The notes under the pieces: generated by a model | Database searches by the model: none | What the model saw: only the letters and a program-made list of their open reading frames with translations | Told to the model about the DNA's origin: nothing | In this document: positions 1,992-32,000 of the stretch, in pieces | Position numbering within the stretch: position 1 is the first letter of the stretch | How the letters are laid out: the number at the start of each line of letters is the position of its first letter | Assembly: GCF_000441555.1 (NCBI RefSeq) | Contig: NC_021885.1 | Span: 427,400 to 459,399 of the forward strand | DNA from: Candidatus Profftella armatura | GTDB lineage: Bacteria > Pseudomonadota > Gammaproteobacteria > Burkholderiales > Burkholderiaceae | Length of the DNA: 32,000 bases | Reading direction: 5' to 3' | Program-made: the position numbers and the translations under genes

Positions 1992-2353
1992 ATGAATCCT
2001 TTTATTTTAATAAAATTAAATTTACGAAAAAATATACAAATAACGATCCCTTCTTTTATATATATCACATATATTGAAAACAATAATAGAATTTTTCATT
2101 TTTTGATATTTATCACACCACGCATGCTCCTTCTAAAAAATATTACAAAAATCTATATTTCTAATTTTATTACTAAATACTCAAAATCTTTTTGATTAAC
2201 AAATTCAACATGATCCACTCTTTGTTTTTCATAAATTTTTGTAATATAAAATACAAACCATTTTCTAATACCAAGAATTTCTGAATTTTTTTCTGATTGT
2301 ACTATCAATTATTTTAATATTAAGATTCATTTTTTAAAAATATCAAATAGTAC

Positions 2354-2397
2354 TAATTATAACCAGTACTAAATATAATTATAACCAGTACTAAATA
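2354..2397. repeat. Perfect 22-bp tandem duplication (TAATTATAACCAGTACTAAATA x2) carrying AGTACT palindromes
   Basis: Read directly: 2354-2375 is identical to 2376-2397. A third AGTACTAA copy sits at 2349-2356. Confidence 0.9.
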
Positions 2398-3018
2398 TTA
2401 ATATCTCTCTAAATTTTAAATATAGTTGATTCATAATGTATCATAGGATAGAAAATTTATATAAAATAATACACTTAAGTTTCCATTTTTTTATTGATTA
2501 CAAACATACTCTACTCCTATCTTAAACCATAGATTTTCATATTTTAAATCGTTCTTTACTTAAATTTTTGACATAAATAAAATTAATTTATATACTCGTA
2601 TCATAATATATTTTGATTTTATTCTTTCTTTTTTCTAATTTTAAATCATAGATAATTAAAGTCTATAAATTATCTGTATTATTTATTTCTATTTTTACAA
2701 AAAATATATTATTACAATCTTAAATATTTTTCTTCCAATATCTTTTAATTGAATTAATGAAGTATTTCCAATGGTAAATAAGAAATATTTAAATTTTTTA
2801 TTTATTATTTTATTATTACTTGAAAAGTAATATTAAATTTTTTATTTAAAATAAGAATATTATATTTTTTGAAATATTTTTAAAATTTTTATTAATAAAG
2901 AAAAAATTTTTTAATAAAAATTAAATATGTTTTTAAAAAAACAATATAAAATTTTTAATTTTTCAGGTACTTTATAAATATTTAATAATAGTATTTAATT
3001 CAATATTATTTATAAACA

Positions 3019-3091
3019 TGGCCTAGGGCGGAATTGAACCGCCGACACAAGGATTTTCAGTCCTTTGCTCTACCAACTGAGCTACCAGGCC
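3019..3091 (-). tRNA. tRNA-Phe (anticodon GAA)
   Basis: The reverse complement folds as a 73-nt cloverleaf. Acceptor is GGCCTGG/CTAGGCC, anticodon stem AAGGA/TCCTT, loop CTGAAAA, T arm GGCGG-TTCAATT-CCGCC. CCA is not encoded. Confidence 0.93.
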
Positions 3092-3513
3092 AAAAAACAA
3101 TTTTTATATAATATAGTATAACTAATTTTTTTTAAAGTATAAATAGTTTATTAAATATTTTTTCAATAAATAAAAAAATGATTTTTATTATTAAATAAAA
3201 TTAAATTAGAATTTAATTCTAAACTGCCATTTTTTTTATTTATAGTTATTAAATAACCATAATATAAATTTAGATTACACTTATCTTGAACCTGTTTCAA
3301 AACATATTCCAATGTTTAATTTGTTTGTTTTTAATTAGTTACTTTAGTTTAAATAACTTTTACAGATGATTATAAAAAATCCATTGAATATTTATTTATT
3401 TTACAGTATGATTAAAAATTACTATATTGAAAATATTTCAAATTTAAATTATTTAAAAAATATAAATAAATTAATTATATTTACTAATTTACTTAAAATT
3501 TAAATTTTTAAAG

Positions 3514-3586
3514 GGGGTGTTAGCTCAGTTGGTAGAGCAGCGGACTCTTAATCCGTAGGTCGAGTGTTCGAATCACTCACGCCTCA
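3514..3586 (+). tRNA. tRNA-Lys (anticodon CUU)
   Basis: 73-nt cloverleaf. Acceptor is GGGGTGT/ACGCCTC (two G-U pairs), anticodon stem GCGGA/TCCGT, loop CTCTTAA, T arm GAGTG-TTCGAAT-CACTC. CCA is not encoded. Confidence 0.88.
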
Positions 3587-3618
3587 AATATTTTACAAAA
3601 AATAAAAATTACAAAATA

Positions 3619-7868: not shown

Positions 7869-10610
7869 ATGTTACATCCAGCATTAAGAATTACTCCATC
7901 AGCTTTATTTTGGTTCGATTCTGTTAAACAAATAATAAAACATTGTGAAAATTTAAAAATAATTTCACCTAAAAAATATGATTTTTCATCTCTTCGTATC
8001 ATAGTTCCAAATACTCTTCATATTCAATATTTTAAAAAAGCATTTAATAAATTTTTTTCCTTTAAAAATTATATATCTCCATTTATTGGAACATTTGATA
8101 ATTGGTTAAAATTACATATATCTAATTTTGATATTTTTTTTCCAATTCAAAACCATGAAAAATTACTATATTTATATTTAAAATTACAAAAAAATTATTT
8201 ATTTAAAAAAAATAATATGATCAATAAAATTGATTTATTAATATTTTCTAAAGAATTAATTAAATTATTTCATGAATTAAATCAAATGTTATTACCATCA
8301 ATTTATAAACTAGATAAAATTAAAATTCGTTGGAAATCAGCTTTAAATTTTTTATCACCATTTGTTTATACTATATTAAAAGATGAAATTGAATTAATAT
8401 GGTCAATTTGGTGTTATCAAATTAAAAATGATGAATCAGTATGGCGATTTATGAATATAAAAAAATTAATAGTTGAAGTAGAAATGCCATTAATTTGGTT
8501 TACCTCTATTCAACCATCTCCAATTGAAATAAATTTTTTAAATAATTATGGCAAAAATTGCTCTGTATTACCAATAATAATAGATTGGTCTAAAATACCA
8601 TATTTATATTTTAAAGCCTGGCCGGAAATTCAATTATCAAAAACTGAATTTACCATAACTAAAAAATTTATATCTCCTTTATATATTAATGATAAAAATA
8701 TTGATGTGCCATCAAATTTATCAATTTGTCCTTGTAACAATTTAGAAGATATTGCTACACAAGTATCCCAAAATATTATCAATTTATTAATTTTAGGTTA
8801 TAAAAAAATTGCTATTATTGAATTAGATAGTCTAGTAATTAGCAGAATCTGTTCTTTATTGAAGCGATCAAAAATTTTTGTTTTTAATACGGTAGGATGC
8901 AAATTATCGAGAACTAGTGCAGCAGCTTTTTTGACTAATTTTTTTAATGTAATAGATGAACCTCGAAAAGCCAATAAATTTTTAATTTTTTTAAAATCAC
9001 CATATATATTAAATGATATTTTAGATAAAAATAATTATATATCAATAATTGAATCAATTTGTCGTGATACTATTATTTTTAATAACTTATATTTTGCCCT
9101 TAAAAAATTAAAAAATATTAATTTAGATTTATATAAATTAATACAAAAAATAGTAAATAAATATAAAAAATTACATATTAAATCTTATTCTATCTCAAAA
9201 TGGAATTCTATAATTTTAAAATTTTTTTTAGAATTAGGTATTAATGAAGCACTAGACACAAATGAATCTGGAAAACTTGTATTAAAAATTTTATCAAATA
9301 TATATAAAAATACAGATTTATTATTTACATTTTCTGAATATAGAAAATTTATTGAATTACAAATGGATATGACAAAATTTATATCAAAATCAGATGATAA
9401 TCGTGTTACTATATTATCGATAAATGATATATATTTGTTGCGTTTTGATGCTGTATTCATAGTTGGAATTGATATTGATAATTTTCCTTCATTAGTAAAG
9501 GAAACTTTATTTTTTTCAAATATATTTAGAAAAAAATTAAAATTAAATACAAATTATTCTTTACGTCAAAAACAATTACGTGAATTAACAGAACTATTAT
9601 GTTGTTGTAAAAAAGTTATATTATTTTGGCAAATATATAAAAATTCAGAATTAAATTTCATTAGCCCTTTAATTGAACGCTTACAATTAATATTAAATAT
9701 ATATAAAAAAAAATTAAAAAAACATCGTTCCAAAATAAATTTGTATGATATAAAATCAATTCCTATACTTCCTCCTCTTCCAAATTGTGGTGAATTACTT
9801 CCTTATAAAATATCTATTACTAGTTATAATAATTTCATAGAATGCCCTTATAAATTTTTTGCGCAACATATGCTTAATTTAAATTCCATTAATAACTTTT
9901 ATAATATTCCTCAAAAATACCATTACGGAAATTGGGTGCATAAAATTCTTTTTTTATATCATAGTCATTTAAATAATGTAAAAAAATTAATTTCTTTAGA
10001 TAAACGTTTTGAATTATTAAATTTAATTTCTAAAAAAATATTTAAAGAAGTTTTAAAAATTTGTCCAGTTTCTTTAAATTACTACATTTCTTGGAAAAAA
10101 TCAATTCCATACTATTTAAAATGGTCTAATTCTCATGAATATTCTGGTTGGAATTTTGTGTCCGGAGAAAAGAAATATAAAAAAACTTTATTTTTATTTA
10201 ATAACAAAAAAATAGTATTATATGGTCGTATTGATCGTATTGATAAAAATATAGATGATCAATATTTAATATTAGATTACAAAACTAGCGACTATAATTC
10301 TTTAAGAAAAAAAATACATAATAATAAGGATTATCAATTAATACTTTATAAATTTTTATTAGAAAAAAATATAAAGATCCCTAAATACAATGCTCAATAT
10401 ATTGTATTAAACAATAAGCAAATAAAAATAATAGATATCCCTAAAAATATATTAAATTCCGTCACAACAGAAAAACTAATATCAAAAATAAAAAAACAAA
10501 TATATTCAATTGCAACCGGAGCATCATTACCTGCTTTAGGTATTGAATCAATTTGTCGTTTTTGTAATATGAAAGGTTTATGTAGAAAAAAAGAATGGTT
10601 AATAAATTAG
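7869..10610 (+). CDS. addB: AddB-type helicase-nuclease subunit (PD-(D/E)XK nuclease with an Fe-S cysteine set; no Walker A seen)
   Basis: The 913-aa ORF has a C-terminal GRIDRID...LILDYKTS nuclease motif. Its four Cys are arranged C(x n)CxxCx5C (ECPYKFF ... CRFCNMKGLC). It lies directly upstream of addA. Confidence 0.8.
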   Translation: MLHPALRITPSALFWFDSVKQIIKHCENLKIISPKKYDFSSLRIIVPNTLHIQYFKKAFNKFFSFKNYISPFIGTFDNWLKLHISNFDIFFPIQNHEKLLYLYLKLQKNYLFKKNNMINKIDLLIFSKELIKLFHELNQMLLPSIYKLDKIKIRWKSALNFLSPFVYTILKDEIELIWSIWCYQIKNDESVWRFMNIKKLIVEVEMPLIWFTSIQPSPIEINFLNNYGKNCSVLPIIIDWSKIPYLYFKAWPEIQLSKTEFTITKKFISPLYINDKNIDVPSNLSICPCNNLEDIATQVSQNIINLLILGYKKIAIIELDSLVISRICSLLKRSKIFVFNTVGCKLSRTSAAAFLTNFFNVIDEPRKANKFLIFLKSPYILNDILDKNNYISIIESICRDTIIFNNLYFALKKLKNINLDLYKLIQKIVNKYKKLHIKSYSISKWNSIILKFFLELGINEALDTNESGKLVLKILSNIYKNTDLLFTFSEYRKFIELQMDMTKFISKSDDNRVTILSINDIYLLRFDAVFIVGIDIDNFPSLVKETLFFSNIFRKKLKLNTNYSLRQKQLRELTELLCCCKKVILFWQIYKNSELNFISPLIERLQLILNIYKKKLKKHRSKINLYDIKSIPILPPLPNCGELLPYKISITSYNNFIECPYKFFAQHMLNLNSINNFYNIPQKYHYGNWVHKILFLYHSHLNNVKKLISLDKRFELLNLISKKIFKEVLKICPVSLNYYISWKKSIPYYLKWSNSHEYSGWNFVSGEKKYKKTLFLFNNKKIVLYGRIDRIDKNIDDQYLILDYKTSDYNSLRKKIHNNKDYQLILYKFLLEKNIKIPKYNAQYIVLNNKQIKIIDIPKNILNSVTTEKLISKIKKQIYSIATGASLPALGIESICRFCNMKGLCRKKEWLIN

Positions 10611-10635
10611 TAATTAAAATAATAAAAATAAAATA

Positions 10636-13600
10636 ATGAATCAAAAAATACAAAAATCTTCAGAAATATCTTATGATATTAATGGTATTTCATCAAATAT
10701 TCAATCTTTTATTAATATATCTTGTAATCCAAAATATTCAGTAATAGTGGAAGCTTGTGCTGGTAGCGGTAAAACCTGGTTACTTATTAGTCGTATATTG
10801 CATATTTTATTAAATGGCGCTAAAGCATCTGAAATATTAGCAATTACATTTACAAATAAAGCAGCCAAAGAAATTCTTAAACGTCTAATGAATTTACTAA
10901 AAGAACTTTCTTTAAGTTCTGATAAAAAAATTGAAATATTATTATATGAACGAGGTATATCTAAAAAAAAAATATTAAATTTTATTCCATTAGCTCGTAA
11001 TTTATATCAAAAATTAATAATAGAAAATCAAAATTTATCAATTTATACATTTCATAGTTGGTTTGCTTATTTAATGCAAATAACACCTTTATTTTCTAAA
11101 TCAATTCGCGGATATAAATTAATCGAATTTACTGGAAAAATAATAGAAAATGCATATAATCAATTAATAACATTTGTTAATAAATCTAAAGACAAATCTA
11201 TTATTAAAAAATCTTTAATAACACTATATGATTTTTTTGGAACTAGTAATGAAAATATTCGTAAATTACTTAATGCATTTATTGATAAACGTGTTGAATG
11301 GTGGATATTATCACGAAATAATAATAACAATGCTATAGAAATTTTACGAAAATTAATGGGAAAAGACATCATATCAGATGCCCGTTTTTCTTTATGGAAA
11401 AATTCCTCTAAAATTAATGAAATTAATATAATAGTTAATTTATTAAAAAAAGGTTCCTTAATTAATAAAAAACGCGCTTTAATTATTGAAAAAATATTAT
11501 CATCTAATCCTAGTATTAATAATTTTTCTATTTTATCAAATCAATTTTTTGATAAAAATGGTAAATTACGTTCTAATTTAAAAACTAAGGATTTAAAAAA
11601 TGAATTAATAAAATACTTTAAAAATGATGAATTATTATCAATTAATAAATTCGATATAAAATTCAAAAAAATAGCAGAATATTTGAAAAAATTACTCAAA
11701 AGAAGCAAAGAATCTTCAATTTTATCAATAAACAAAGCGCTTTTTAAGTTAGGAAATATGTATCTTAATATTTATCAAAAAATAAAATTTAAAAAACGTG
11801 TAATAGATTTTTATGATATTGAATGGAAAATTTATTGTTTATTTACTAATGATAATCATGTGATCTATTTGCAAAATAGATTAAATATTTTATATAAATA
11901 TATTTTATTAGATGAATTTCAGGATACTAGTCCATTACAATGGATTATTATTAAATCTTGGATAAAAAAATACAGTGTAAAAAAAATAAAACCATCAATA
12001 TTTATCGTTGGAGATCCAAAACAATCAATTTATCGATTCCGTCATGCTGATCCACGTATATTCACTGCAGCTTGTAAATTATTAAAAAAACGCAATGGTT
12101 TTATTTTACGTTCTAATCGAACTTGGCGTAATTCTATAAATTTAATTAATGTATTAAATCTTAGTTTTAAAAAAAACCCAATTTATACTAAACAAACTAC
12201 TGCTTGTAAAAATATAGGAAATGTATGGAGACTTCCATTAGCAACAAATACATTTTTTTTTGAAAAAAATTTTCATACAAATATCTTAAAAGATAATATT
12301 AATTCAAATAATTTTCATGAAGAAGAAGATATTTTTTATAAAAATGAAGGAAAAATGATAGCTCAAATATTATTATATTTAAAAAAAAATTTTTTAATTA
12401 ATAATACTAAATCTAATAATATCAAAAATAATAGAAATTTAATATGGTCAGATGTAATGATTTTAATAAAAAAACGTACACATTTATTATCATATGAAAA
12501 TGCATTACGTCATTATGGAATCCCATTTATATCAGATAAAAGAAGTGGTCTACTTGAATCCTTAGAAATAACTGATTTAATTGCATTATTAAAATTTCTA
12601 AATATGCCAAGTGATTCTTTATCATTAGCACATGTATTAAAGAGTCCTATTTCAGGTTCTTCTGATGAAGATTTAATTATATTAGCAAAACGCTCAGAAA
12701 AAACTTGGTGGAAACGTTTAAAAGCTATATGCAAAGAAAACGTACAATCATTGTCTCTAAAAAGAATTTATAATTTATTAAAAAAATGGTTAGCAATTTC
12801 TTTAAATTTACCAGTATGTGATTTACTTGATATTATTTTATATGAAGGAAAAATAATTAAACGTTATACTCAATATACAGTAGCATTTAAAATAAATCAA
12901 GTAATTGGTAATATTCATAAATTTGTAGAATTATCTTTTAAATTAAACCTTAAAAATTATATTACTTTATCAAAATTTATAGATATATTATCCAATCTAG
13001 ATAATAAAATAGAAAATAATTCCATAGATGAGGAAAAAATTAATGTATCTACAAATTCGATACGTATTTTAACTGTGCATAGTGCAAAAGGATTAGAAGC
13101 ACCAATAGTGATTATTTTAGATTCAAATCATAGTAAACATAACTCTGATAAAATTGGTATCTTATGTAATTGGCCCCAAAATAAATTAAAACCAAAACAT
13201 TTTTCTGTATATTCTAGTGAAAAAGGAATGGCTCGAGATATTTTATTTAAAATAGAAGAGAAATTTAAAGAACAAGAAGATTGGAATTTATATTATGTTG
13301 CATTAACTCGAGCTAAACAATTACTCATTCTTAGTGGAATAAGAAATAAAAATAAAACAAATGGATTAATATTAGATAGCTGGTATAATCGCCTAAAAGG
13401 CGCAACAGATTTATCTATTGATTTTTTAAAAAATATAATAAATAATTCTTCAGAAATAATTAATTGTAACTCAAATTATAAGAAAAGTAACAAAATTACT
13501 CTTTCATTATTTAAATCACCTTGTTTGGAAATTAAAAATAACTTAAAAACTAATGCTAATATTATTCACGATAAAATTAACATAGACAAGGGTATTATTT

Positions 13601-14016
13601 TTCATGATTTATTAGAACGACTTTGTTCGCAAAAAAAATGGCCAATTATTGTTCCAACAACAAATTTTATTTCTAAATGGTTAAAATGTTCATTATCATT
13701 AGCAAAAATAGGTAGAAAATATGTAATAAAAATATTATCAAAATCACATTTAAGACGTTTTTTCGATTCTTCAAAATATTTAAAATCATATAATGAGATG
13801 GAAATTATAATAAATAATATTACTTTTAGATTAGATCGTGTTGTTGAATTTAATGATGAAATTTGGATTCTTGAATATAAATTAAATCTATTTAAAAGTG
13901 AAGAAAAAATCTATAGAATACAATTAAAAAATTATTGTAATTCTCTTAAAACCATATGGACTAAAAAAAAAATTCGTGCCGCATTTATTACTTCTGATGG
14001 TAATTTATTAGAATAG
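10636..14016 (+). CDS. addA: AddA-type UvrD/Rep superfamily-1 helicase with a C-terminal RecB-family nuclease
   Basis: The 1126-aa ORF carries the helicase motifs ACAGSGKTW, TFTNKAA, DEFQDTSP, GDPKQSIYRFR, LTVHSAKGLEA and YVALTRAKQ. Its C-terminal nuclease motif is DRVVEF...ILEYK. Confidence 0.87.
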   Translation: MNQKIQKSSEISYDINGISSNIQSFINISCNPKYSVIVEACAGSGKTWLLISRILHILLNGAKASEILAITFTNKAAKEILKRLMNLLKELSLSSDKKIEILLYERGISKKKILNFIPLARNLYQKLIIENQNLSIYTFHSWFAYLMQITPLFSKSIRGYKLIEFTGKIIENAYNQLITFVNKSKDKSIIKKSLITLYDFFGTSNENIRKLLNAFIDKRVEWWILSRNNNNNAIEILRKLMGKDIISDARFSLWKNSSKINEINIIVNLLKKGSLINKKRALIIEKILSSNPSINNFSILSNQFFDKNGKLRSNLKTKDLKNELIKYFKNDELLSINKFDIKFKKIAEYLKKLLKRSKESSILSINKALFKLGNMYLNIYQKIKFKKRVIDFYDIEWKIYCLFTNDNHVIYLQNRLNILYKYILLDEFQDTSPLQWIIIKSWIKKYSVKKIKPSIFIVGDPKQSIYRFRHADPRIFTAACKLLKKRNGFILRSNRTWRNSINLINVLNLSFKKNPIYTKQTTACKNIGNVWRLPLATNTFFFEKNFHTNILKDNINSNNFHEEEDIFYKNEGKMIAQILLYLKKNFLINNTKSNNIKNNRNLIWSDVMILIKKRTHLLSYENALRHYGIPFISDKRSGLLESLEITDLIALLKFLNMPSDSLSLAHVLKSPISGSSDEDLIILAKRSEKTWWKRLKAICKENVQSLSLKRIYNLLKKWLAISLNLPVCDLLDIILYEGKIIKRYTQYTVAFKINQVIGNIHKFVELSFKLNLKNYITLSKFIDILSNLDNKIENNSIDEEKINVSTNSIRILTVHSAKGLEAPIVIILDSNHSKHNSDKIGILCNWPQNKLKPKHFSVYSSEKGMARDILFKIEEKFKEQEDWNLYYVALTRAKQLLILSGIRNKNKTNGLILDSWYNRLKGATDLSIDFLKNIINNSSEIINCNSNYKKSNKITLSLFKSPCLEIKNNLKTNANIIHDKINIDKGIIFHDLLERLCSQKKWPIIVPTTNFISKWLKCSLSLAKIGRKYVIKILSKSHLRRFFDSSKYLKSYNEMEIIINNITFRLDRVVEFNDEIWILEYKLNLFKSEEKIYRIQLKNYCNSLKTIWTKKKIRAAFITSDGNLLE

Positions 14017-18402: not shown

Positions 18403-18749
18403 GGGCCTCTAGCTCATGATTGGTTAGAGCAGCGGACTCATCAAAATGGTGACTTTTTTCAGAAATGAAAATTGAAAAAAAATCTAATATTAAAGATTTT
18501 AAAAATTGGGTTAATTCAGGGAAGCCTAAGTTTATAATACAAATATGGTAATCCTGAGCCAAGTCAAAAATACATTTTTGAAAGGTGCAGAGACTAGCGG
18601 AGAGGTAAAGTCCTCTTAATTACCGATAAAAACGCCCAACACCTGAACAATAATTTATACTATTGAAGGTGATGAGATAGTCCAGTAAATAGTGAAAACT
18701 ATAAAAAAACTGAATCCGTTGGTACCGTGTTCGACTCACGGGAGGCCCA
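18403..18749 (+). tRNA. tRNA-Ile(CAU), lysidine type, interrupted by an intron (exons 18403-18441 and 18713-18749)
   Basis: The joined exons give a 76-nt cloverleaf. Acceptor is GGGCCTC/GAGGCCC with C4-G69 and C5-G68, anticodon stem GCGGA/TCCGT, loop CTCATAA, T arm CCGTG-TTCGACT-CACGG. It resembles E. coli ileX more than the Met tRNAs. Confidence 0.9.
18442..18712 (+). ncRNA. Group I self-splicing intron (IC3-like, Azoarcus tRNA-Ile type), 271 nt
   Basis: The intron is inserted directly 3' of anticodon CAT. The internal guide GTGA (18449-18452) pairs with exon TCAT, giving a U-G pair at the splice site. The terminal nucleotide is G at 18712. Core blocks are CCTAAG/TATGG, GAGCCAAG, AAGGTGCAGAGACTAG, ATAGTCCAG and an ATAGT-GAAA-ACTAT hairpin. 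Confidence 0.85.
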
Positions 18750-18755
18750 TAAAAT

Positions 18756-30375: not shown

Positions 30376-30452
30376 TGGCGGAGTGGACGGGATTTGAACC
30401 CGCGACCCCCGGCGTGACAGGCCGGTATTCTAACCGACTGAACTACCACTCC
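30376..30452 (-). tRNA. tRNA-Asp (anticodon GUC), CCA encoded
   Basis: The reverse complement is a 77-nt cloverleaf. Acceptor is GGAGTGG/CCACTCC, anticodon stem CCGGC/GCCGG, loop CTGTCAC, and the 3' end is GCCA. Confidence 0.94.
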
Positions 30453-30480
30453 TTATTTATTTTACAATTTTTTTAAAATA

Positions 30481-30556
30481 TGGTGGGTGTTGAGAGAATT
30501 GAACTCCCGACCTACGCCTTGTAAGGGCGTCACTCTACCAACTGAGCTAAACACCC
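30481..30556 (-). tRNA. tRNA-Val (anticodon UAC), CCA encoded
   Basis: The reverse complement is a 76-nt cloverleaf. Acceptor is GGGTGTT/AACACCC, anticodon stem ACGCC/GGCGT, loop CTTACAA, and the 3' end is ACCA. Confidence 0.94.
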
Positions 30557-30675: not shown

Positions 30676-31893
30676 TTAAATTGAAAAAATATTTTTACCA
30701 GAATAATTATAAAATTCACCTAAATCTTCTTCAATTCTTAATAATTGATTATATTTTATTATATTTTCTTGAAAAAAAATTGAGTTAATTTTTATTTGCG
30801 ATGCATTAGCACCAAGAGTAATATCGATTATGCTGGAATCTTCTGTTGTATTTATATCACATGAAATTATTATATTATATCCAAATTTTTTTATTTTTTC
30901 AATATTTTTTAGAATTTCAGTTAATGTATTATATTGATTTAATTTTATTAAAATGGAATTATTAATATTTTTTTTCATATTTTTTAAAAAAATTTTATTA
31001 TTATTAAAAAATAAATTTTTACCAATTAATTGAATTTTGTTTTTTAATTCTTTATTTAAATATTTTTTACCTTCCAAATCGTTTTCTGCTATACCATCTT
31101 TAATGCTTATAATTGGATATTTGTTGCATAATGAAATTAATAAATTTATCATTTGAATTGAATTTAATTTTAAATTTTCATTTAATTGGTAAAAATTATT
31201 TTTATAATATTTATTAGAAGAAAAATCTAAACCAATTGCTATTTGTTTTCCTGCTTCGTACCCAGATTTTTTAATTGCTTGTAAAATATATTTTATTATT
31301 TTTTCTGTTTTTTCTAAATTTTTGTGATCATATGAAAATTTATTTTTTATATTTTTTTTTATAAAAAGTATTTTTTTGAATATTTTAATTACTTTAATTC
31401 CATAATGAATCGCTTCTTTAAAACTAGAAGCTCCAATTGGAATGATCATAAATTCTTTAATTCCCAATTCATTAAAACATATTTTATTATTAGTATTAGT
31501 AATGCCAAATATTGGAACAGGTATACTGATTTCTCTGCTTCCGCTTATATAACGATATAATGGTAGGCCAAGTTCATTAGACGAAGCTTTAGCGATTGCA
31601 ATTGAAACAGAAAGTAATGCATTTTTTATAAATTGTGATTTATTTTTACTTAAATTAGTTAAAGTATAATCTAAAAAAAATTGTTCATTAGAAGAAAAAC
31701 CCATAATAGCTTCAGAAATTTCTGTGTTAATATATTTACAAGATTCTAATGTTTCATTTTTTTTTATTAAAAATTTGGATGATATAGATGCGCGACCTAA
31801 AATACCGGATTCTAATAATATATCGCATTCAATAGCAGGAAAACCTTGTGAATCTATAATTTCTCTTCCAATAATATCTACAATTGCACTCAT
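30676..31893 (-). CDS. eno: Enolase-family protein with a degenerate active site (likely non-catalytic)
   Basis: The 405-aa ORF keeps enolase end blocks: MSAIVDIIGREIIDSQGFP, IKEFMIIP, NSILIKLNQ and KYNQLLRIEE. It lacks PSGASTG, GGEHA, GDEGG, the Glu of SIEDG, the GDD pair and SHRSGETED. Confidence 0.85.
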   Translation of the reverse strand: MSAIVDIIGREIIDSQGFPAIECDILLESGILGRASISSKFLIKKNETLESCKYINTEISEAIMGFSSNEQFFLDYTLTNLSKNKSQFIKNALLSVSIAIAKASSNELGLPLYRYISGSREISIPVPIFGITNTNNKICFNELGIKEFMIIPIGASSFKEAIHYGIKVIKIFKKILFIKKNIKNKFSYDHKNLEKTEKIIKYILQAIKKSGYEAGKQIAIGLDFSSNKYYKNNFYQLNENLKLNSIQMINLLISLCNKYPIISIKDGIAENDLEGKKYLNKELKNKIQLIGKNLFFNNNKIFLKNMKKNINNSILIKLNQYNTLTEILKNIEKIKKFGYNIIISCDINTTEDSSIIDITLGANASQIKINSIFFQENIIKYNQLLRIEEDLGEFYNYSGKNIFSI

Positions 31894-32000
31894 TAATTTT
31901 CCTAAGGTTTTATGAAATAAAAATTTTTTTATGAAATAGTAAGTAGATTAAATTAATGATTAATATATTTTGTATTAATAAAAAATTTTTTATATATTTA

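Follow-up and report, generated by a model that had tools for sequence, protein, structure and literature searches.

The window analyzed here is the final 32 kb of the Candidatus Profftella armatura chromosome record, as follows from the position of the gene under study, an open reading frame (ORF) derived from enolase (eno) that lies 108 bp from the record end in deposited chromosomes. Profftella is a defensive symbiont of the citrus psyllid Diaphorina citri. We consider it probable that this ORF encodes a pseudo-enzyme: a protein that would keep the enolase fold, would no longer dehydrate 2-phosphoglycerate, and would still be made and constrained by selection in the Profftella of D. citri. 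It was filed as a pseudo-enzyme because the defining features of a working enolase and those of a pseudogene (in its frame and in its substitution pattern) were both tested for and were not found.

An ortholog of enolase

An earlier note on this DNA, written from its letters, had given the position and length of the ORF correctly:

30676..31893, minus strand: eno-derived ORF, a catalytically degenerate enolase; ATG start, 405 codons, 405 aa

The encoded protein is an exact match to a Ca. Profftella armatura entry (WP_020915638.1/AGS07063.1) annotated as "phosphopyruvate hydratase." The note had read it as a full-length enolase homolog and had proposed a Pfam profile check, which recovered both domains, each nearly end to end (Enolase_N, 3.3e-20; Enolase_C, 9.9e-63). 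Using HMMER, we found that the top solved structures were likewise enolases (E = 5.8e-80 and weaker), and sequence homology to enolase extends over the N-terminal and TIM-barrel domains. The closest homologs outside Profftella are enolases of Herbaspirillum and other Oxalobacteraceae at about 50% identity, which is the expectation for vertical descent in a Burkholderiales symbiont, and the alignments indicate that the ORF is a vertically inherited enolase of the Oxalobacteraceae type. It shares orthologous descent and two full-length domains with the canonical bacterial enolase (EC 4.2.1.11; PF03952 and PF00113, TIGR01060); identity to the Oxalobacteraceae/Herbaspirillum enolases is about 50–53%, and the N-terminal strand, the LLRIEEDLG helix, and the core strands are kept. 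In contrast to the canonical enzyme, the equivalents of Glu295, Asp320, Glu211, His159, and His373/Arg374/Ser375 are replaced, the lid loop is degenerate and 16 residues shorter, and the pathway context is missing from the published gene tables.

The ORF scored 303.7 bits against the NCBI enolase equivalog model TIGR01060, for which the cut-off is 300 and the free-living Herbaspirillum ortholog scores 693. A dead enolase thus exceeds the equivalog cut-off by only 3.7 bits, and because the threshold is passed, automatic pipelines label the gene as an active enzyme.

Active-site residues lost and retained

Residues of the active site are numbered as in yeast enolase, assigned by motif, and the calls are based on HMMER alignments to solved enolases together with a 30-sequence alignment with Oxalobacteraceae enolases. 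The features, all on the minus strand and listed in the order of the protein, are as follows:

31744..31788, minus strand: residues 36–50, SISSKFLIKKNETLE, degenerate active-site lid; SGASTG motif gone, with a 16-residue in-frame deletion after Glu50
31468..31506, minus strand: residues 130–142, GITNTNNKICFNE, in place of VINGGAH-ADNN; the His159 equivalent is Lys137 (NGGAH to NTNNK)
31453..31455, minus strand: Glu147, aligned to Glu168 and retained
31324..31356, minus strand: residues 180–190, KNIKNKFSYDH, in place of TSVGDEGGF-AP; Glu211 replaced by Lys185 (GDEGG to KNKFS)
31225..31227, minus strand: Asp223, aligned to the Mg ligand Asp246 and retained
31099..31101, minus strand: Lys265 in place of the Mg ligand Glu295 (SIEDG to SIKDG); the sister remnant has the same Lys
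31015..31020, minus strand: Lys292-Asn293 in place of Asp320-Asp321 (VGDDLF to IGKNLF); the sister remnant has Asn-Asn
30943..30945, minus strand: Lys317, aligned to the catalytic base Lys345 and retained
30853..30861, minus strand: Cys345-Asp346-Ile347, aligned in place of His373-Arg374-Ser375 (SHRSGE to SCDINT)
30790..30792, minus strand: Lys368, aligned to Lys396 and retained

In the lid, VPSGASTG has become ISSKFLIK and the next 16 residues (LRDGDKSRYFGKGVLK) are deleted, much as the earlier note had seen it (SSKFLIK, followed by the loss of the adjoining segment). A serine is still aligned to Ser39, though this is nominal given that the Gly-rich loop around it is gone. Of the 12 catalytic and ligand residues we found only 5 to be kept, compared with 56% of all outgroup-invariant columns. 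The residues lost are invariant or at least 90% conserved among outgroup enolases, and their loss is therefore not a matter of chance. The five least conserved stretches of the protein are its active-site loops, and the stretch spanning residues 181–195 has 0% identity to the outgroup.

Asp223 (Asp246) is the sole survivor of the Mg(I) triad Asp246/Glu295/Asp320. The catalytic base Lys345 is present as Lys317 while its partner acid, Glu211, has become Lys185. From the substrate-binding set (His159, Glu168, His373, Arg374, Ser375, Lys396, and the Ser39 lid), Glu147, Lys368, and the aligned serine are left. The protein lacks two of the three Mg(I) ligands, the catalytic acid, the residues that bind phosphate, and the lid loop, and canonical dehydration of 2-phosphoglycerate therefore appears implausible, which was also the view of the earlier note. 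The alignments reproduce the losses that it had listed at His159, Glu211 (a site that aligns as KNKFS), Glu295, His373, Arg374, and Ser375, and they correct it at position 320, which it had given as Asp to Asn: Asp320 is replaced by Lys, and it is Asp321 that has become Asn. The four residues it had named as the only ones left (Asp246, Lys345, Lys396, and Glu168) are all retained, but they are not alone, since the serine aligned with Ser39 also remains.

A remnant of eno in the sister lineage

We reached the corresponding locus in the Profftella of Diaphorina cf. continua (AP023215, 456580-469264, reversed; hereafter L012) via its TatD ortholog, which is 90% identical. The 1.9 kb upstream of tatD carry no gene call there, and eno is missing from the gene table that the authors give for that genome; the region holds an unannotated remnant of eno (L012:35-1165). 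The remnant is 84.6% identical to the D. citri ORF at the nucleotide level over 1040 aligned columns, with at least 25 indels, most of them not multiples of three. Its longest ORF has 38 codons, its first stop falls at codon 22, and four stop triplets occur in the D. citri frame. The stretch 5' of the remnant that corresponds to the Shine-Dalgarno-like motif of the D. citri copy contains no AGGA.

Despite this decay, the remnant shares derived active-site states with the ORF. These include ITN for ING, (S/N)IKD with the change of Glu295 to Lys, a degenerate SGASTG, and Asn at 321; at 320 the remnant has Asn where the D. citri copy has Lys. The codons TCA TGT GAT, which give Ser-Cys-Asp in place of Ser-His-Arg, are identical in the two. 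Several of these states need two to three nucleotide changes, and we therefore regard them as inherited rather than acquired in parallel, so that the enolase of the common ancestor would have been catalytically dead with its frame still open. The shared replacements thus indicate that catalysis was lost before the two sequenced Profftella lineages split. The 16-residue lid deletion, which is in frame, is found in the D. citri lineage only.

Selection on the D. citri copy

Since the lineages split, the amino-acid-determining positions of the D. citri copy have changed at the slow pace of an ordinary functional gene, its third codon positions have drifted normally, and the sister copy has decayed neutrally. 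As a baseline, eight neighboring genes have diverged between the lineages by 6.5%, 3.4%, and 13.8% at codon positions 1, 2, and 3, with a ratio of nonsynonymous to synonymous change (dN/dS) of 0.18 by the Nei-Gojobori method (NG86). Divergence between eno and its remnant is flat, at 13.5%, 17.7%, and 14.9%. Because the remnant branch is neutral anyway, we used polarized tests instead of pairwise dN/dS.

With 117 Oxalobacteraceae enolases as the outgroup, changes from the ancestral residue that are confined to one copy number 6 in the D. citri copy and 51 in the remnant (p = 5.7e-10); among the other sites, 129 are ancestral in both, 107 are shared-derived, and 43 differ in all three. The counts are 5 vs 29 when only well-aligned blocks are used and 3 vs 17 for single-nucleotide codons. 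TatD, which served as a control, gave a symmetrical 9 vs 6 in the same test. Expressed as change per branch at ancestrally conserved sites (D. citri, then sister), TatD has 5.8% and 3.9%, and eno has 3.2% and 27.4%.

Base composition follows the same division by codon position. At positions 1 and 2 together, 71 sites where the D. citri copy has G/C are A/T in the remnant, as opposed to 22 in the reverse direction (p = 3.5e-7); the same comparison at position 3 gives 17 vs 22, and G/C loss in the neighboring genes is symmetrical at positions 1 and 2. Overall GC is 20.2% in the ORF vs 15.0% in the remnant. Since only codon positions 1 and 2 are protected, the selection would act on the protein, which argues against a constraint at the level of DNA or RNA.

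We also simulated a neutral D. citri branch that carries half of the divergence between the two copies, drawn from the substitution spectrum seen between them; this produced about 5 new stops, with P(none) = 0.005, frameshifts being uncounted. As a signal for translation, the AGGA ribosome-binding motif in front of the ATG has been kept by the D. citri copy only. The frame is uninterrupted over all 405 codons, both in the window and in four other strains, so that neither a disrupted frame nor, on the D. citri branch, a neutral substitution pattern was found. Purifying selection was found, acting on a homolog that lacks essential residues. Across 55 index blocks of assemblies (25 contigs read), the protein sequence is the same, and only one synonymous single-nucleotide polymorphism separates eno among four D. 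citri strains. The relative-rate, codon-position, and simulation tests thus agree with the earlier note's argument that selection maintains the open frame. The note had also held that a dN/dS near 1 together with frameshifted sister orthologs would point to plain pseudogenization; the sister ortholog is indeed frameshifted, stop-ridden, and listed as absent (Nakabachi et al. 2020), but neutral evolution of the D. citri copy is rejected. Taken with the remnant, these comparisons indicate that purifying selection has acted on eno in the D. citri lineage from before the split onward and that the D. cf. continua lineage has discarded the gene.

Metabolic context and partners

The absences reported here come from published gene tables and thus follow their authors' annotation; the table for the sister genome is complete. 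In these tables, eno is one of 16 genes present in the Profftella of D. citri (Profftella_DC) but not in that of D. cf. continua (Profftella_Dco) (Nakabachi et al. 2020, GBE, PMC7643613, Table S2B). The sister-genome table contains no phosphoglycerate kinase or mutase (pgk, gpm), glyceraldehyde-3-phosphate dehydrogenase (GAPDH; gap), or triosephosphate isomerase (tpi), and no fructose-related enzyme (fba), pyruvate kinase (pyk), or phosphoenolpyruvate (PEP) enzyme (pps/pck/ppc) (PMC7643613). It lists no murA, kdsA, or aroA either. Apart from the listed genes, the two Profftella genomes have the same content, which leaves eno as the only glycolytic gene in the D. citri lineage, and with neither a supplier of 2-phosphoglycerate nor consumers of PEP in the tables, its substrate and product would both be without a user. 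A second enolase gene is absent from them as well. The search for a second eno and for neighboring glycolytic steps that the earlier note had suggested therefore ends with none listed, nor any PEP consumer.

The note had also offered a role as a scaffold partner of RNase E, of the degradosome type. In the RNA degradosome of Escherichia coli, enolase is bound to RNase E as a non-catalytic component, which provides a precedent for an enolase dimer that acts as a binding partner independently of glycolytic flux. The E. coli degradosome enolase is fully active, however, and RNase E/G (rne, rng, COG1530) is absent from the complete Profftella gene table, whose RNases are rnb, rnc, pnp, ybeY, and rnpA, accompanied by a DEAD-box helicase. 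The proposed degradosome partner therefore does not exist by this annotation, and we rejected the partnership; with COG1530 missing, this suggestion of the note falls.

Conserved regions and a possible role

The best-conserved stretches of the protein are its N-terminal strand, the C-terminal LLRIEEDLG helix, and the core barrel strands:

31804..31893, minus strand: residues 1–30; the first 15 are identical to the outgroup consensus, with 67–100% identity in sliding windows
30718..30768, minus strand: residues 376–392, ENIIKYNQLLRIEEDLG, aligned as a strongly conserved C-terminal helix

In known enolases, the N-terminal strand and the C-terminal helix form the dimer interface, and we take Arg10, Glu22, Arg386, and Glu389 of the ORF to be the counterparts of the yeast dimer-interface residues Arg8, Glu20, Arg414, and Glu417. 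Because these regions and the core strands are the best conserved and the active-site loops the worst, the property under selection would be non-catalytic, with binding or scaffolding by a dimer of the enolase type as the most likely candidate. Lysines now occupy two former Mg(I) ligand positions; they may neutralize the remaining acidic residues and so allow the barrel to fold without metal. The role would have been dispensable in D. cf. continua.

We predicted the structure of the protein with AlphaFold2 from the 30-sequence alignment and obtained a mean predicted local distance difference test (pLDDT) score of 46. The canonical Herbaspirillum enolase scored an equally low 48.8 with the same alignment, and the low score is therefore put down to the shallowness of the alignment. 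The isoelectric point of the protein shifts from 4.8 to 9.3, which we considered as a hint of RNA binding and dismissed because TatD shifts likewise, from 5.3 to 9.1, under the genome-wide AT bias.

Several points weigh against a constrained pseudo-enzyme. Among the entries listed in the proteomics supplements of two D. citri studies, the only enolase found was that of the host. The argument from the dimer interface is based on yeast and E. coli structures and not on a model. As eno has been lost in the sister lineage, any function it has is not essential to Profftella as such; with that ortholog shattered, at least one host can do without the function. A measure of the kind the earlier note had called for, the pairwise dN/dS of the ORF against its remnant, is 0.74 (confidence interval 0.51–1.11), which alone cannot separate constraint from neutrality on the D. 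citri branch; the polarized tests reject neutrality. Only two lineages are available, so that the branch estimate is a single comparison. Finally, deposited variants of the protein exist, one with Gln changed to His in the LNQ motif and another cut at residue 392 (XVW81379.1); both may be sequencing errors.

Alternative explanations

It is possible that the gene is a functionless relic on its way out, the last unbroken gene of glycolysis, whose constraint ended recently or served only to keep toxic products, truncated or misfolded, from arising. In the comparative genome paper, the lineage-specific genes are interpreted as a sign of random silencing that is still under way (PMC7643613), and such a relic would fit with the loss of eno in the sister lineage, its metabolically orphan state, the lack of a peptide among the entries listed in the two proteomics studies, and contents of Lys, Ile, and Asn that top those of the window's proteins. 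We nevertheless judge a relic unlikely. Catalytic residues were lost before the split, yet of 186 ancestrally conserved sites only 6 have since changed in the D. citri copy (3.2% vs 5.8% for TatD on the same branch), it has kept G/C at codon positions 1 and 2, and it has 0 stops and 0 frameshifts where about 5 stops and many indels are expected neutrally; nothing points to a very recent release. The protein could instead have become a new enzyme, in which Lys345, Lys396, Glu168, Asp246, and the two new lysines would serve a metal-independent reaction on another substrate. Four active-site residues including the general base are retained, lysine now stands at both lost metal-ligand positions (at one of them through an Asn-to-Lys change in the D. 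citri lineage only), and purifying selection is present. However, conservation is lowest in the active-site loops (0% identity in residues 181–195), which do not appear re-optimized, the lid loop is 16 residues shorter, and the gene tables offer no candidate pathway for a substrate. The retained residues, Glu168 excepted, were also kept in the neutrally decaying remnant, and their survival is therefore weak evidence for a new enzyme, to which we give a lower chance than to a relic.

A more specific idea, which we regard as a long shot, is that the protein has a structural or organizing role peculiar to the D. citri lineage, either as a component of the helical tubes or as a dimeric scaffold of an RNA- or ribosome-associated assembly. 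Profftella contains helical, ribosome-decorated tubes whose molecular make-up is explicitly described as unknown (PMC12446461). If the constraint lay on the DNA or RNA instead, the stretch might act as a promoter or leader for the unit of tRNA-Val, tRNA-Asp, and tatD, or as an antisense element; the two tRNA genes and tatD do lie directly downstream on the same strand, and many antisense RNAs have been reported in Profftella. This seems very improbable, given that the third positions of eno have diverged like those of its neighbors (14.9% vs 13.8%) and symmetrically, with only positions 1 and 2 protected, and that the sister lineage keeps the tRNAs downstream of a shattered remnant. Least probable of all is a weak enolase that still serves a cryptic exchange of 2-phosphoglycerate and PEP with the host. 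The NCBI equivalog threshold is passed and the annotation is phosphopyruvate hydratase, but 303.7 bits is barely above the cut-off of 300, the genome tables list no enzyme that uses PEP or 2-phosphoglycerate, and the protein lacks two of three Mg(I) ligands along with Glu211, His159, His373, Arg374, Ser375, and the lid loop. In yeast enolase, single substitutions at several of these residues cut activity by orders of magnitude.

Gene neighborhood and other observations

The window is strongly AT-rich (19–27% GC per 2 kb), and the eno protein has the highest content of Lys, Ile, and Asn among its proteins. At a GC content of about 20%, a promoter scan was uninformative (21 matches vs 15.7 expected). 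The features next to eno are as follows:

31900..31903, minus strand: AGGA, Shine-Dalgarno-like motif, 6 nt 5' of the eno ATG
30481-30556, minus strand: tRNA-Val(tac), directly downstream of eno on the same strand
30376-30452, minus strand: tRNA-Asp(gtc), same strand as eno, with tatD next; both tRNA genes lie within 30376..30556

Other genes in the window are sucC, rpoH, a PLD-like gene, rho, trxA, an AddAB-like nuclease/helicase pair, dnaG, rpoD, rsmB, ahcY, metK, an alpha/beta-hydrolase gene, birA, lspA, ileS, rsmE, tadA, and tatD. The AddAB-like pair (7869-14016, plus strand) comprises an AddB-like PD-(D/E)XK nuclease of 913 aa and an AddA/UvrD-like helicase of 1126 aa, both large intact ORFs in a very small genome.

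A tRNA gene with the anticodon CAT (18404-18750, plus strand) is split in its anticodon loop by a group I intron. The intron matches Rfam RF00028 at 18449-18704 (82 bits, E = 1.2e-19), ARAGORN calls no tRNA there, and the flanking exons read gggcctctagctcatgattggttagagcagcggactCAT... and ...ccgttggtaccgtgttcgactcacgggaggccca. It presumably resembles the intron of the Azoarcus tRNA-Ile(CAU), and a self-splicing intron kept in a 460-kb symbiont genome is notable. At 1995-3615, a 1.6-kb region of about 19% GC has no ORF of at least 75 aa and contains two tRNA genes (3019-3091, minus strand; 3514-3586, plus strand). We performed tblastn on it with an approximate Lpd query and found nothing, so that it is not an obvious lpdA remnant.

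Two recent assemblies of D. citri strains differ in their gene calls. In CP146399 (1652-2441 of the section compared, L009), tatD is called as two fragments of 190 and 104 aa, and in CP174202 (13868-16918 of L008), no ileS is called at the site of the 964-aa gene. These are probably homopolymer sequencing errors rather than pseudogenes, and an error of this kind may also be behind the 392-aa eno variant XVW81379.1.

Relation to known systems and significance

Pseudoenzymes derived from metabolic enzymes are known, among them delta1-crystallin (from argininosuccinate lyase) and alpha-lactalbumin (from lysozyme) (PMC7435893). Like the Profftella protein, these are homologs of an enzyme family that lack catalytic residues and are kept for another role; they are, however, eukaryotic paralogs that exist beside an active copy, whereas in Profftella it is the sole copy in a 460-kb genome that is dead. 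We found no precedent for a dead or pseudo-enolase of bacteria in the literature searched. The gene itself and its absence from the sister genome are already published (PMC7643613): Nakabachi et al. 2020 describe lineage-specific gene silencing, with eno among the 16 genes specific to the Profftella of D. citri. In the portion of that text searched, eno appears only as present or absent, with no mention of a dead active site, the AP023215 remnant, or an asymmetry in rates. Across the literature searched, we found no account of the active-site losses, of the remnant, which is unannotated, of when catalysis was lost, or of continued selection. What is new is a bacterial enolase kept only in dead form, pseudo-enzymes and enolase moonlighting both being known.

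One practical consequence is that a false enzyme is carried into metabolic reconstructions for the symbionts of this pest, as the gene is named phosphopyruvate hydratase in Profftella genomes. More generally, the locus suggests that a gene can remain under selection for a long time between its death as an enzyme and its physical loss. Enolase is a textbook moonlighting enzyme, but as it is essential, its roles outside glycolysis are difficult to tell apart from catalysis. In this case, catalysis, the pathway, and the RNase E partner are gone and the protein appears still constrained, so that whatever role remains would be non-glycolytic by definition. If the structural-protein explanation were true, this would be the first enolase of a bacterium to be retained purely for a role outside glycolysis, and it would provide a natural separation-of-function allele for enolase moonlighting.

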